A stretch of DNA of 11,202 bases, from assembly GCA_022560555.1 (NCBI GenBank), contig JADFSZ010000041.1:1-11202 (forward strand). Reading direction: 5' to 3'. The notes beneath the pieces are model-generated. The model had not been told where the DNA came from. It did no database searches and saw nothing but the letters and a program-made list of their open reading frames with translations. This stretch comes from PVC group bacterium. GTDB taxonomy: Bacteria; GCA-001730085; JADFSZ01. This document shows positions 4,014-11,202 of the stretch, piece after piece. Numbering within the stretch: the first letter of the stretch is position 1; each line of letters starts with the position of its first letter. Position numbers and translations under genes: made by a program.

Positions 4014-4041
4014 TTCACCGTTCACCGTTTACCGTTTACAG
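4014..4041. repeat. Four direct heptads (TTCACCG TTCACCG TTTACCG TTTACAG) overlapping the stop codon of the hydrolase gene
   Basis: Same unit family as 11-138. This block is inverted relative to the 3936-3963 block, with about 50 nt between them. Confidence 0.85.
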
Positions 4042-5971: not shown

Positions 5972-6853
5972 ATGGACATACTTATCACAGGCTCAACAGG
6001 GATGCTCGGGCAAGCCCTGATGAAGGAATCGCAACAAAGACACTTTCAGACAACTGGATTAGCGTCTAAAAACACGGATCTTAATATTGATATTACGGAC
6101 ACGGACATCCTTGTTAAAAAGCTCAAGGATATACGGCCCCAAGTGATCATTAACGCGGCGGCGATCGTCAGCCACAAACGCTGTGAAGAAAATCCGGAGC
6201 AAGCCACCAATACAAACGCTAAAGCCGTAAGTGTACTCGCAGAGATTGCCAAAGATATTGGGTGCTATTTTATACAAATTTCTACGGACCATTTTTTTAC
6301 CAATGATAAAGACCGCAAACACGATGAAGATCACCCGGTAACACTTCTTAATGAATATGCCCGTACGAAATACGAAGGAGAAAAGTTCGCATTAGAAAAT
6401 CCACAGGCTCTCGTTGTACGAACCAATATCGTTGGTTTTCGTAATTTCACCCCGCAGCAGCCTTCTTTTATCGAATGGATTATTATGAACAGAAAAAATC
6501 GTCAGCCTATAACACTTTTTGATGATTATTTTACCTCAAGTATCGATATTACGACATTCGTGTGTATTTTATTTGATCTCTTCAAGCAACGTCCCCATGG
6601 ACGGCTTAATATCGCGTCCCAACAAGTTTCAAGCAAAAAGGAATTTATCGAAGAGCTATGTCACGAATTTCAATTTGACTTGGATGGTGCCATCACAGGC
6701 AGTGTCAAGACACTACAGACCCCTATGCGCGCGGAAAGCTTGGGTCTTGATGTTAGTCAAGCAGAATCACTTTTGGGTTGCTCACTGCCTGATCGCCATC
6801 AAGTGATTGCCAATCTTCAAATAGAATATAAGGCACTTGGTTATGAACTATGA
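5972..6853 (+). CDS. NAD(P)-dependent sugar-nucleotide reductase, RmlD (dTDP-4-dehydrorhamnose reductase)-like SDR
   Basis: 293 aa. MDILITGSTGMLGQAL is the Rossmann GxxGxxG motif. IINAAAIVSHKRCEENPEQATNTNAKA and ISTDHFF match the RmlD substrate-binding-domain pattern, and YARTKYEGE provides the YxxxK motif. Confidence 0.85.
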   Translation: MDILITGSTGMLGQALMKESQQRHFQTTGLASKNTDLNIDITDTDILVKKLKDIRPQVIINAAAIVSHKRCEENPEQATNTNAKAVSVLAEIAKDIGCYFIQISTDHFFTNDKDRKHDEDHPVTLLNEYARTKYEGEKFALENPQALVVRTNIVGFRNFTPQQPSFIEWIIMNRKNRQPITLFDDYFTSSIDITTFVCILFDLFKQRPHGRLNIASQQVSSKKEFIEELCHEFQFDLDGAITGSVKTLQTPMRAESLGLDVSQAESLLGCSLPDRHQVIANLQIEYKALGYEL

Positions 6854-8466: not shown

Positions 8467-9581
8467 TTACGTGGAGCCGAAATACACCTTTTGAGGCTAC
8501 GGACACTCTGCAGGAGACATGGACGTACCATGAGGATGGTCATCAAAAATCTATTCCTGTTGAAATTTTCCTCGGAAAACCCATCGATATTGTTTCATTA
8601 AAAAAAGAAAATATAGAAGATTTTGCATCCAAGATTGATTCGATCAGCCAATCCCGTAAGAATCTGTATCAAGATACATCTCTCGAACATGTCATGGTTT
8701 GCCCTGTGTGTTCCTCATCAACCGATACGGCAACAAAGATTATTAAAATTTATGGAGCACAGTATTGCCGCTGCAACTATTGCACACATCACTTTGTTTT
8801 GGATCGATTGAGTCAAAAAGCGATTGAGGAATTTTATACTTCCAATCAAACATACCAAAGCACTTACGCTGATCCGGAAACACTCCAAAAGCGCCTGAAA
8901 GACATATCTCTTCCCAAAGCCCGCTGGACCATTGAACGTTTTGAGCATCTTGTCGGCCAAAAACCTAAAAAAATATTGGATGTCGGAACAGGCAGCGGTC
9001 ACTTTGTTCACGCGTGTCGCACATTAGGAATAGAAGCTGATGGATTGGAAATTAGCCAATCCGGCGTAAAATTTTGCAAAGATATTTTTGGAATCAAACT
9101 TATTCAAAAAGATTTTATCACAGAATGGGAGTCATTGGGTGACTACGACATCATCACATTTTGGGGTGTTATCGAGCATGTTCCTGGACCTGTAATAATG
9201 CTTAAAACCGCGGCTCAATTACTCGATAAAAAACCCTCCATGATCGTCACAGAAGTACCCCGTTGGGCCTGCTTTGGAACGGAAGTGCAAAAGCTGTTTC
9301 CCACATCCATTATCCGACACCTTGATCCTCTGGGTCATATTCAGATGTTTACAGATTCTTCGCTCGCGACCACATTTCTAAAGGGAGGGTTTGAACCTAA
9401 TGCCGCGTGGTATTTCGGAATGGATTATTATGAGCTCCTAGTACAAACAGCCCATCATCTTGGTGACAAGAATATTCTTGAGACAATGAAAAGTTATATC
9501 AATCCCATTCAAAATGCGCTTGATCATTCCCGCAGTGTTGACACCATCGTATTAGCCGGAACATCTACCCAAGCAGAATAA
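8463..9581 (+). CDS. Class I SAM-dependent methyltransferase with an N-terminal CxxC...CxxC zinc ribbon
   Basis: 372 aa. CPVCSSS...CRCNYCTHHF forms the Zn ribbon, ILDVGTGSGHF is SAM motif I, and DIITFWGVIEHV is motif II/III. ATGA start/stop overlap with the GNAT gene. Confidence 0.85.
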   Translation: MITWSRNTPFEATDTLQETWTYHEDGHQKSIPVEIFLGKPIDIVSLKKENIEDFASKIDSISQSRKNLYQDTSLEHVMVCPVCSSSTDTATKIIKIYGAQYCRCNYCTHHFVLDRLSQKAIEEFYTSNQTYQSTYADPETLQKRLKDISLPKARWTIERFEHLVGQKPKKILDVGTGSGHFVHACRTLGIEADGLEISQSGVKFCKDIFGIKLIQKDFITEWESLGDYDIITFWGVIEHVPGPVIMLKTAAQLLDKKPSMIVTEVPRWACFGTEVQKLFPTSIIRHLDPLGHIQMFTDSSLATTFLKGGFEPNAAWYFGMDYYELLVQTAHHLGDKNILETMKSYINPIQNALDHSRSVDTIVLAGTSTQAE

Positions 9582-9584
9582 ATA

Positions 9585-9902
9585 TTATTGAATTGATTTA
9601 AGGAGTTCTTCGGAAAATTTTGGAGGATTTTTAAGTACCCCGATTGAGGCATAGTCTCTGAGAAATTCACGGGATCGATCATTCAATTGGCTCACAATGT
9701 TATCCTGATTAGAATTGAGTTGTCGCATACAGTCTTTTAATGAATCCACATTATGTGCTAAAAGAACGGCTCCTTGAGATATAAAAAAATTTTCTCGCAT
9801 ATCATCGTAAAGGTCAATCACAATCACCGGTTTTTGTAATATCATTGCCTCTAAAACAGCTGTCGATTCATAGGTCACAATAAAATCTGAGGCAAGAATC
9901 AT
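9585..9902 (-). pseudogene. 5'-truncated remnant (C-terminal ~100 aa) of a GT-B-fold sugar transferase (PseG/SpsG-, TagF- or capsule-biosynthesis-like)
   Basis: ASDFIVTYESTAVLEAMILQKPVIVI matches the usual GT-B C-terminal-domain motif (sD-x-V-x-t-x-x-St-x-x-x-EAl-x-x-gkPvi). At least 200 N-terminal residues are missing. The frame stays open upstream to a stop at 10062-10064, but it passes through the 66-nt repeat and GC-rich sequence with no ATG/GTG/TTG above 9929. It is convergent with the methyltransferase gene, with a 3-nt gap. Confidence 0.55.
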
Positions 9903-9947
9903 AAAAAGTGAGAAGCCGCCACAAAACAAACAGGGTAAGTGACTTAA
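9882..9947 (+). repeat. Left copy of a 66-nt imperfect direct repeat; an orphan copy of the 3' end of the GIY-YIG gene
   Basis: Aligns without gaps to 11136-11201 (offset 1254 nt) at 59/66 identities. The plus frame reads KSEARIIKSEKPPQNKQGK-stop versus KSEARIIKSQKPPQNIKGK-stop in the intact gene. That frame is closed by a TAG at 9871-9873, so nothing of the gene remains upstream. Confidence 0.9.
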
Positions 9948-10090
9948 CGGATACTTATTGAAGGCAACATGGGAATAAAGGCGACCGGCAACGAGCGCCG
10001 AGAGTGACGCGGTTCTATTCGACCAGCCTGTACTTCTCGCACCGCTCGCGCAGGTCTCATGTCATCGTCGCACGATGATAAATGCCTTTA

Positions 10091-10294
10091 TCAGCCCATG
10101 ATGACGTGGCGGCGATAACGGTTGCGCGACTGCTTCATGGATTTCTCGTTGAATTCGCGGTCAAGCTTGAGAATGCGTTTGCGGCGCTTTCTCGCGCGCT
10201 TTGCCGAGATGTCTTCGAGCAGCAAAATCCAAAGCGGTATCAGAAAAATATTGTCGTGAGCCTGGCGGTTAAATGTTTCGGTCAGTAAGGCCAT
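10091..10294 (-). CDS. Hypothetical small basic protein (67 aa) with a hydrophobic core IFLIPLWILLL followed by a KRARKRRKR tail. The coding strand is unresolved.
   Basis: ATG at 10294 with AAGGAG (10301-10306) exactly 6 nt upstream, the same geometry as the GIY-YIG gene. However, a codon-aligned antisense ORF (10082-10288, +, 68 aa) has the higher first-position G content (about 38% against 18% by hand count), which favours the plus strand. Neither ORF has recognisable family motifs. Confidence 0.35.
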   Translation of the reverse strand: MALLTETFNRQAHDNIFLIPLWILLLEDISAKRARKRRKRILKLDREFNEKSMKQSRNRYRRHVIMG

Positions 10295-10558
10295 GATTTT
10301 CTCCTTGTCTTTTCAGACCCGGTCTATCCGGGCCTTTCTAAGCCTGAGAAATGCATGTCCCGTGGCGGCTGCATCCGTCCTATTAGACGGACCGTAACGT
10401 AGAGTAGGAGGCTTGCCCTTGCAGCCCGCAGGAGAGGGATGTGCCAGTTTTGAGGTTTGAAAGGCCTGATAGGCAGAATGAAAAGTTAGAGGAAAAATCT
10501 AACTTCTCTGCGATAATGACCGCTTGGCACAACGGATATATGCGTCTGAGGAGAAGAA

Positions 10559-10828
10559 ATGTTTTATCACATGAATCTTGCCGGCAAAGAATTACACAAA
10601 TTCGAGGATAATGAATTTGAAATAGTTGTTTATCGAGCAGAGGAAGATGGGCATTTGAGAGGGTATATTTCATCAGGCGGGTTTAGTGACCGCATAGCTG
10701 AAATATCCGGAGAAATAGCAAGTGATATGAAAACTGTGTCAGGAAATGACCCAGTGGCCGCGCTCATAGACAACATAAAGACTGAAATCAATGCTGGTAA
10801 GTTTCGTTTGCAAAGAAACACAAAATAA
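10559..10828 (+). CDS. Hypothetical protein, 89 aa, net acidic, no recognisable family
   Basis: ATG with GAGGAG 5 nt upstream. It sits immediately upstream of, and on the same strand as, the GIY-YIG gene (74-nt gap). The antisense ORFs across it look like shadows. Confidence 0.6.
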   Translation: MFYHMNLAGKELHKFEDNEFEIVVYRAEEDGHLRGYISSGGFSDRIAEISGEIASDMKTVSGNDPVAALIDNIKTEINAGKFRLQRNTK

Positions 10829-10902
10829 GGCACTTCAGCTCTGACACTTCGATCTGCTGTGTACCGGTTAATTGAAACATTAGAAGTCAAAAGGAGAGAA
10901 TT

Positions 10903-11196
10903 ATGGTCGGAAAAAAAAGTGGAAGTTTCGATAAAAAGGGAATCGAGGGTCTCGCAAAGGACAAACCCGTCGTATACAAGATCGAAGATAATAAAGGAAA
11001 AAATCTGTATACAGGCGTTGCTAAAAGAGGGCGAGTGGAGGCTCGGATAAAGGAACATTTACCAGGTGCGGCAGACCCTGTGCGGGGTGGTGCGAAAGTA
11101 AAAATACAGCAAAAGCCGAGTATTGATAAGGCCAAAAAATCTGAAGCTAGAATCATAAAGAGTCAGAAGCCACCACAAAACATAAAGGGTAAGTGA
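10903..11196 (+). CDS. GIY-YIG nuclease, catalytic domain only (97 aa), lysine-rich
   Basis: PVVYKIEDNKGKNLYTGVA carries GIY/YIG-type motifs, RVEARIKEH supplies the conserved Arg and His region, and KSEARIIKSQKPPQN matches the UvrC / homing-endonuclease-type E-x2-hI-x3-KP-x2-N motif. AAGGAG lies 6 nt upstream of the ATG. No DNA-binding extension is present. Confidence 0.8.
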   Translation: MVGKKSGSFDKKGIEGLAKDKPVVYKIEDNKGKNLYTGVAKRGRVEARIKEHLPGAADPVRGGAKVKIQQKPSIDKAKKSEARIIKSQKPPQNIKGK

Positions 11197-11201
11197 CTTA
11201 A
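11136..11201 (+). repeat. Right copy of the 66-nt direct repeat (last 19 codons, the stop codon and 5 nt beyond, of the GIY-YIG gene)
   Basis: See 9882-9947. The window ends 1 nt after this copy. Confidence 0.9.
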
Positions 11202-11202
11202 G

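Follow-up and report, generated by a model that had tools for sequence, protein, structure and literature searches.

The DNA analysed here, called the window, is the whole 11,202-bp contig JADFSZ010000041.1 of a metagenome-assembled genome (MAG) classified as 'PVC group bacterium'. Its right end carries two 66-nt direct repeats and the gene of a 97-aa GIY-YIG nuclease. Each repeat is the 3' end of one copy of this promiscuous gene, whole on the right and reduced to a stump on the left, and the locus adds one more case to a known kind, that of mobile DNA which has been duplicated and has decayed. In a more specific form, to which we give about an even chance of being correct, the locus is the scar left by a duplication and a deletion in mobile DNA, next to a truncated glycosyltransferase (GT) gene. 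The initial annotation had seen in it a mobile or homing cassette delimited by the repeats, in an arrangement foreign to the described element classes. The DNA right of 9882 is foreign indeed, and of mobile origin; the 66-mers did not prove to be element ends, and integron-cassette or plasmid DNA that was duplicated and then decayed accounts for the arrangement.

The two 66-mers were recovered by repeat search at the positions at which they had first been aligned (Table 1), without gaps, 59 of 66 residues being identical and the start-to-start distance being 1254 bp. They are the sole long repeat in 9400-11202, the two other families detected consisting of 12-mers of chance size. The right copy belongs, as proposed, to an intact gene, assigned by a match to Pfam PF01541 and by fold. 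The left copy is an orphan, again as proposed: similarity to about 30 family members of other genomes starts at 9881-9883, and no part of the gene lies upstream. Four of the seven substitutions that separate the copies leave the protein encoded in the GIY frame unchanged, and the left copy was therefore once part of a functional gene under purifying selection. Its stop codon is followed by CTTAA(C), an R''-like core of attC, the integron cassette site, and CTTAAC is present behind each of the two stop codons. The GC content rises from 0.37 in 9601-9900 to 0.52 in 9901-10200, in line with the compositional shift first estimated by hand. Only the left host junction lies within the contig. The right repeat stops 1 nt short of the contig end, and a bracketing of the module can therefore not be shown. 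This repeat ends where the conserved gene and its R''-type core end, a point at which family members set in unrelated surroundings diverge too.

Evidence for a second copy of the segment comes from L075, a 764-bp contig of the ENA assembly ZHOU22-1_SAMN16252662, which carries a full-length nuclease gene preceded by ORF89, a small open reading frame (ORF) also found in the window. Over 556 nt, L075 is 100% identical to window 10538-11093, a stretch that takes in ORF89, the spacer behind it and two-thirds of the nuclease gene from its start. Further on it departs from the right copy at 11094, 11106, 11116, 11134 and at all seven variable positions of the repeat, where it is of the left type (no mismatch in 10903-11093, 11 in 11094-11201). 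After the stop codon, 100 nt of L075 are exactly window 9948-10047, so that tail and downstream DNA match the left copy over 166 nt at 100%. L075 thus joins a full-length gene, a left-type tail and the same downstream DNA, and the segment must exist in at least two copies, be they tandem, dispersed or circular. The path running from tail to stump, GC-rich region, ORF89, gene and tail again closes on itself via L075, with a period of 1254 bp. Among the options first considered, a unit of a repeated array therefore gains support; that the copies stand in tandem in one molecule is what we infer. The proteins encoded by the chromosomal part of the contig have relatives in other assemblies that are just 90-99% identical. 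With its recurrence at 100% DNA identity, the ORF89-nuclease stretch thus behaves as mobile DNA. A plasmid-like contig, L011, shows the same gene order, from the non-coding block upstream of ORF89 to the nuclease gene and the tail of a 129-aa gene, with identities of 77-87%. The left repeat matches the L075 tail at 66 of 66 positions and L011 at 61 of 66.

The right copy of the nuclease gene is a mosaic of two alleles: it is of the L075 type up to 11093, and differs at a single position over 11071-11201 from L076, a contig of an unrelated study (65 of 66 in the repeat), whose 5' part is just about 87% identical. The switch point falls between 11071 and 11094, and the last 110 nt or so come from a different allele, either by recombination or by a switch in assembly. 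The second option is part of an unlikely, though serious, alternative, that of an artefact at the contig end: the assembler would have entered the tail of another allele for the last 110 nt or so and then stopped, the true gene having a left-type tail and the path looping, as happens when a repeat is collapsed, or the contig being put together from parts of different molecules. The mosaic is perfect, the right repeat lies 1 nt from the contig end, and the last base, 11202, is an odd G where L075, L076, L011 and the left copy have C. Many relatives of the gene come from very short contigs or lie at the end of a contig, and a sister MAG contig in NCBI (2152 bp, carrying MCH7591084.1, IIB34_08640), on which the protein P0209 is partial, breaks about 100 nt short of the left junction. 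Yet mosaics arise by homologous recombination among cassette alleles as well, and an error at the right end would leave in place the orphan tail, the gene stumps and the composition shift. A chimera of GT and nuclease tail would need a shared k-mer, and just 21 nt are shared. The duplication-deletion scar does not exclude a contribution of assembly, and a switch of strain or paralog at the tip is plausible.

The closing of the period in L075 is also what the junction of a circle or a tandem unit would give. A discrete 1.25-kb module, mobile or circularising, inserting via a site in its own nuclease 3' end with duplication of the 66-nt site, and possibly helped by the nuclease, would fit this and the better conservation of the segment, relative to the host chromosome, between assemblies; its insertion point would coincide with the partial loss of a host gene. 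Such a module is nonetheless highly improbable. The 42 nt preceding the repeat hold four more differences between L075 and the right copy, and within the repeat L075 is left-type at all seven positions; hence L075 did not arise from this locus by simple excision between the repeats. Neither a recombinase nor a replication protein is encoded in the module, which also lacks terminal inverted repeats; its repeat boundaries are a truncation point and a natural gene end, and pseudogene debris lies inside. In more than 40 other loci, neither an orphan tail nor a second copy was found within 6 kb. The GT ORF of a sister strain is, moreover, about as short as that of the window. A slim chance at best is given to a recombinase-free mobile cassette, in which the 1254-bp unit (stump, hairpin and ORF67, ORF89, GIY-YIG gene) would exist as a circle or an amplifying array and enter chromosomes by a break or short homology in its own nuclease 3' end, driven by the action of the nuclease, perhaps an Ssn-like enzyme cutting hairpins or single-stranded DNA, on the 200-nt hairpin or on attC-like DNA.

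The gene disrupted at the left junction is represented by a GT stump which covers just the last 80-90 positions or so of the NCBIfam GT models: positions 255, 262 or 269 to 343 of the 365 of BFO_1060_trans (262-343 scoring 27.4 bits), and 254 or 260 to 344 of the 427 of TIGR04396. Weak matches to the C-terminal part of Pfam Glycos_transf_1 and of TarM (residues 405-485 of 493) were also obtained. The match being confined to the C-terminal end of the models, about 255-265 N-terminal residues are missing. The truncation initially described, with a loss then put at about 200 residues or more, is thus real, and its exact position is ambiguous. The 21 nt at 9882-9902 belong at once to the stump and to the left repeat. 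On the minus strand they encode MILASDF, antisense of the KSEARII motif conserved in every member of the nuclease family; MILASDF fits the GT model as well, the NCBIfam score rising from 18.6 to 27.4 bits once these residues are added. As the 21 nt fit both nuclease tail and GT, the breakpoint may lie anywhere in 9882-9902.

A sister population provides an independent view of this junction. P0210 (MLIECAHTIKEMILASDF...), encoded on a 683-bp ENA contig, is the product of a 116-aa GT-like ORF (NCBIfam, 32.1 bits) that reads MLIECAHTIKE-MILASDF-IVTYES...; MILASDF is kept, and the residues before it differ from the window. GT sequence is thus joined to the same MILASDF codons in a separate contig, which argues that the junction is real and not an artefact. 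The sequence right of 9902 differs between the two populations, and the region is polymorphic. P0210 starts with M, so that the sister GT ORF is probably short too, which favours an old, shared truncation. The sequences point to a GT truncation which may be old and fixed in both strains, with variable DNA to its right. The initial annotation had contrasted a mobile element with an old, fixed rearrangement, recognizable by an equally short GT ORF in relatives and by the lack of polymorphism: the ORF is about equally short, and the region right of 9902 varies. Two positions of the junction are possible. It may lie within the 21-nt overlap, a coincidence hard to get by chance, or both strains may share a junction at 9881/9882, the sister strain having been rearranged again at 9902/9903. 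A homologue search with the stump returned the stump alone, the members of its cluster being the sister MAG fragment and the 116-aa ENA version. A scan of genome contigs with the neighbouring methyltransferase, aimed at an empty site, found no relative.

The interior of the 1254-bp segment is a patchwork of broken mobile-DNA pieces. The DNA at 9948-10114 is 87% identical to that found behind the nuclease gene on L011 (557-785), where it consists of a 66-nt spacer and of the 3' end of a convergent ORF of 129 aa, weakly matching PDDEXK_5 (E 0.035). The stump of this PD-(D/E)XK-like gene in the window is 84% identical to residues 99-130 of the L011 ORF by tblastn, and has an in-frame TGA at 10057-10059; its upstream part was lost at a junction around 10114/10115. 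A truncated gene with a nonsense codon counts in favour of duplicated, decayed mobile DNA. ORF67 makes a singleton cluster, and has no match in Pfam, NCBIfam, PADLOC or PHROGs. The GC-rich region 10115-10456 gave no blast match in 76 fetched loci. The inverted repeat next to ORF67 is imperfect, 49 of 62 aligned positions of its arms being complementary (score 47; none of 300 shuffles exceeded 32), and it is predicted to fold into a stable RNA hairpin on either strand (z = -5.5 on the plus, -4.8 on the minus strand). No Rfam family, introns and riboswitches included, and no attC model match it, the Rfam search over the whole window giving just a sub-threshold chance match to a snoRNA. On the minus strand the hairpin ends at the ribosome-binding site and ATG of ORF67; its right arm is conserved on L011. 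The block made up by this arm and the next 45 nt is non-coding, window and L011 having stops in each other's frame. A scan of metagenome contigs with the 20-mer common to the window and L011 returned one unrelated match of 23 nt.

ORF89 has 31 homologues, 51-81% identical and of equal length, forming 25 representative clusters. Members of the family (L050-L057) are 84-95 aa long and spread across phyla, and proteins of 800-1800 aa contain 5-10 repeats of a related domain. In L050 the homologue is preceded by an attC. Relatives are found behind attC beside a SIR2-HerA defence pair in contigs of Olavius symbionts, and adjoining an insertion sequence (IS) and a Tn7-like element in Methylomonas. 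Searches of PADLOC, PHROGs and NCBIfam with ORF89 and the L011 neighbours gave nothing informative.

Table 1. Positions of the features discussed in the text; coordinates are those of the window, except in the last line.
Feature	Position	Strand	Basis or content
GT-B-type glycosyltransferase-like C-terminal stump, IID04_03160, 105 aa	9585-9902	-	NCBIfam, Pfam and TarM matches
Left repeat	9882-9947	+	orphan GIY-YIG 3' end, codons 78-97, stop codon 9940-9942, then CTTAA(C)
PD-(D/E)XK-like gene stump, last 32 codons	10015-10110	-	tblastn against the 129-aa ORF of L011
ORF67, IID04_03165, orphan, 67 aa	10091-10294	-	strong ribosome-binding site (AAGGAGAAAATCATG)
Imperfect inverted repeat, 205 nt	10295-10499	.	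arms 10295-10362 and 10436-10499
Non-coding block, upstream of the GIY-YIG gene also on L011	10457-10545	+	77% identity to L011 3-92
ORF89, IID04_03170, small conserved gene	10559-10828	+	homologues
Degenerate cassette 5' boundary, ATTAGAA	10878-10884	+	upstream alignments of family members
Intact GIY-YIG gene, MCH7504622.1, 97 aa	10903-11196	+	Pfam, fold, family alignment
Right repeat	11136-11201	+	last 20 codons, stop codon and 5 bases of the intact GIY-YIG gene
Nuclease gene in loci linked to Res: L014, L019, L023, L024, L025, L028, L060, L061	about 6001-6294 of the locus, or as listed		

The four genes of the segment and its left border (GT stump, ORF67, ORF89 and nuclease) are annotated in one and the same MAG. 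The rest of the contig is a surface-polysaccharide and nonulosonic-acid cluster, with genes for Wzz, a polysaccharide export protein, TruA, a hydrolase, a CMP-sugar cytidylyltransferase, an RmlD-like reductase, NeuB, a GNAT protein and a methyltransferase. Arrays of the heptamers ACCGTTT/ACCGTTC occur at the contig start (17-138, 16.6 copies) and again at 4014-4039, between the TruA and hydrolase genes, and the decamer TGTCATAGTC is repeated 4.8 times at 2931-2978 (region 2931-2998). Both kinds of array may be protein-binding repeats.

The nuclease was correctly described at the outset as a minimal GIY-YIG protein. The match to PF01541 (E 1.3e-5) is over the curated cutoff, and the AlphaFold model (pLDDT 83) finds its best fold match in the GIY-YIG domain of UvrC (TM 0.66-0.73, rmsd 2.2 A). 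The catalytic-type residues Y25, Y36, R44, R48, H52, E81 and N93 are invariant in 44 family sequences. The domain spans residues 20-93, and neither a second Pfam domain nor a DNA-binding domain was found in the 97 residues. About 1000 homologues were found, 74-95% identical and with few exceptions also of 97 aa. Among species-representative genomes, those with a homologue belong to Nitrosomonadaceae, Acidobacteriota, Latescibacterota, Nitrospinota and Nitrospirales, and further to Rhodothermales, Binatia, Thermodesulfobacteriota, Calditrichota, Acidimicrobiia and others, over more than 10 phyla. The protein is conserved at about 77% over these phyla, which implies that the gene is often transferred horizontally. 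No relative was found in 2.9 million viral contigs, the 17-mer matches being due to chance, nor in 50,697 phage records or the plasmid record collection searched by blastn and tblastn. Our literature search yielded no publication on this nuclease family or on the sample.

In other genomes, the nuclease family circulates as an integron gene cassette. In L058, whose protein is 89% identical, the gene is a textbook cassette with attC on both sides, and attC sites lie directly before or after the gene in L001, L020, L021, L022, L027, L031, L044 and L058. A hand-written attC scanner performed no better than on shuffled sequences, and a covariance model of 9 base pairs, trained on 11 sites of related loci, was used instead; the model is crude and missed one obvious attC of L058, and it recovered untrained sites in L022 (six), L001, L027 and L044. 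The stop codon is directly followed by TTATAAC or TTAAC in 12 of 34 loci, and a GTTAnnn core occurs at most 45 nt upstream of the ATG in 12 of 34. The DNA conserved family-wide extends from an R'-type core about 25 nt before the ATG to an R''-type core right behind the stop codon. Ending at the boundary cores, it corresponds to the cassette minus the variable attC interior. Attention is drawn to L016 (Methylomarinum), where attC-like sites at 463-578 and 1056-1169 flank the nuclease gene on both sides; they have perfect 18-nt terminal inverted repeats (GTGAAACGAAGCCCAACA ... TGTTGGGCTTCGTTTCAC) and are of a type unlike the other attC seen.

The gene is also fixed in plasmid-like backbones and before Type III restriction genes. 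L011 carries it alongside a MobA relaxase and a coupling protein of a type IV secretion system. In eight loci (Table 1), belonging to at least six phyla, it lies 20-40 nt upstream of the gene for the Res subunit of a Type III restriction system, a protein of about 1040 aa with ResIII and endonuclease domains, often followed by N6/N4 methyltransferases. A cassette-type 5' leader (GTTATAAGTCAC...AAGGAG) is still recognisable in these loci. The nuclease gene may be an accessory gene of Type III restriction systems. In one of them, L014 (Acidobacteriota), the nuclease frame at 6001-6201 closes after 66 codons and the tblastn match spans residues 1-97; judging from the sequence, the nuclease gene preceding the intact Res gene may here have become a pseudogene by frameshift.

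In the window itself neither attC nor integrase was detected. The attC model found no match in 9882-11202, its best match in the window (14 bits) falling inside the methyltransferase gene, and a cluster of attC sites is likewise missing. The ORFs of the window of at least 60 aa encode neither an integrase nor a transposase domain, and Pfam, NCBIfam, PADLOC and PHROGs revealed no recombinase or replication protein in the module. The module ends have no inverted repeat, the sole long one being that inside the module. Scans of the window for tRNA and tmRNA genes were empty, which leaves no tRNA-type integration site, and Rfam gave no match to group I or II introns.

Traces of cassette boundaries are seen in the 63-nt spacer between ORF89 and the nuclease gene. 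Similarity of the window to L058, L060 and L061 begins at 10877-10880, and the ATTAGAA found there corresponds to the R' core, GTTAGAA in L011 and GTTATAA in L058 and L060; likewise, AAATAAG replaces the ACATAAC (R'') of relatives. AAATAAG and ATTAGAA look like dead core sites, with the key base mutated in each. These positions, the attC sites flanking ORF89 and GIY-YIG genes in relatives, and the orientation and small size of both genes would suit a decayed cassette array, in which ORF89 and the nuclease gene are neighbouring cassettes, their attC mutated beyond recognition, and the orphan tail is the remnant of another cassette. This close variant of the duplication-deletion scar is quite unlikely as an account of its own. 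The attC model is silent over 9882-11202 and the window has no integrase. Behind the orphan tail lies a convergent gene stump, not an attC, and the same non-attC arrangement is found on the relaxase-bearing L011. The junction between GT and tail is, finally, away from the R' core, and hence not the product of an integrase.

Duplication and deletion would combine as follows, the order of events being the one we infer. A segment derived from a plasmid or from cassettes, made up by the hairpin region, ORF89, the GIY-YIG gene and the tail of a convergent PD-(D/E)XK-like gene, would have lost its attC sites. It would have been at least doubled, a tandem duplication of about 1254 bp with 10114/10115 as its novel joint being the simplest form. 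A deletion or an illegitimate recombination would then have taken about 800 bp of the GT 5' end and, with it, the 5' portion of the nuclease gene in the first copy, leaving GT stump next to nuclease tail. The repeats would be by-products of the duplication and not recombination sites, and the nuclease need not be the cause of any of these events.

Several observations weigh against this reconstruction. A tandem within one molecule is not demonstrated, and L075 may derive from another locus or strain, from a plasmid, or from a circular form. ORF67 and the GC-rich 10115-10456 have no counterpart elsewhere, so that the closing of the period is not seen in another assembly. The two copies of the repeat differ by 11%, a value high for a recent in-place duplication, which fits only if the right tail was replaced by another allele or mis-assembled; the 3' 110 nt or so of the right copy are of another allele, maybe through an assembly switch rather than biology. 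The dual reading of 9882-9902, as nuclease tail and as glycosyltransferase alike, is not explained by a simple deletion. The crude attC model could, lastly, overlook degenerate attC remnants.

The locus itself is of little weight, being a scar at the end of a MAG contig, and repeats touching contig ends need checks at the level of reads. Worth keeping is the finding of a catalytic-domain-only family of 97 aa which moves as an integron cassette, and has been repeatedly recruited onto plasmids and as first gene of Type III restriction-modification operons. The hairpin, matching no catalogued family, deserves to be retained too.

Among known systems, IS elements and miniature inverted-repeat transposable elements were rejected, as the module ends have no terminal inverted repeats and no transposase domain was found. 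Homing endonucleases of the I-TevI/Seg type share with the 97-aa protein the GIY-YIG catalytic domain, with its conserved Tyr, Arg, His, Glu and Asn, and a horizontally mobile gene. In contrast to them, the protein has no linker or DNA-binding domain, and its similarity to I-TevI is marginal (E 0.59). The gene does not reside in phages, viral contigs or introns, intein context is missing as well, and no target gene was found in an occupied and an empty form. The homing initially envisaged is therefore not supported.

Closer in size are the Ssn proteins, single-domain GIY-YIG nucleases specific for sites in single-stranded DNA (Chenal et al. 2025, PMC11893778). The 97-aa protein resembles them, to judge from size and domain layout, as a stand-alone GIY-YIG domain of about 94-97 aa (less than 150 aa), with no accessory domain and widespread across phyla. 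The gene is, moreover, often placed between hairpin-forming elements, here the attC sites of relatives. An Ssn-related motif flanks 71% of ssn genes (PMC11893778). In the nuclease family, unlike Ssn, the Ssn-related hairpin motif (HGTCWY...RNCYNB) has no match within 1 kb on either side of 33 family loci, against 0.4 in shuffles. The window contains a single match, at 9977-10009 on the minus strand, in the spacer between orphan tail and PD-(D/E)XK-like stump; about 0.07 are expected per window, and the match is not conserved in L011. Should the protein truly be an Ssn-like nuclease of hairpins or single-stranded DNA, real interest would attach to its association with attC hairpins and with restriction systems.

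Integron cassettes, including clusters of attC sites lacking integrases (CALINs), differ from the locus in that attC, attI and intI are not recognisable in the window, where the bases of the cores are mutated (ATTAGAA, AAATAAG, CTTAAC), that the orphan-tail junction lies off the core site, and that a convergent gene stump follows the tail, as on the plasmid-like contig. The likenesses are nonetheless many. Both the GIY-YIG gene and ORF89 are small, look promoterless and lie on the same strand, and close relatives of the two are bounded by attC in arrays (six sites in L022; L001, L021, L027, L058). The conserved DNA of the nuclease family starts at the R' core and stops at the R'' core, and cassettes with GIY-YIG domains have been reported in a chromosomal integron (PMC10609294). 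With tandem duplications followed by deletion, as found in remnants of islands and plasmids, the locus shares repeats that are homologous parts of two copies, a novel joint, truncated genes at the border, and a foreign composition.

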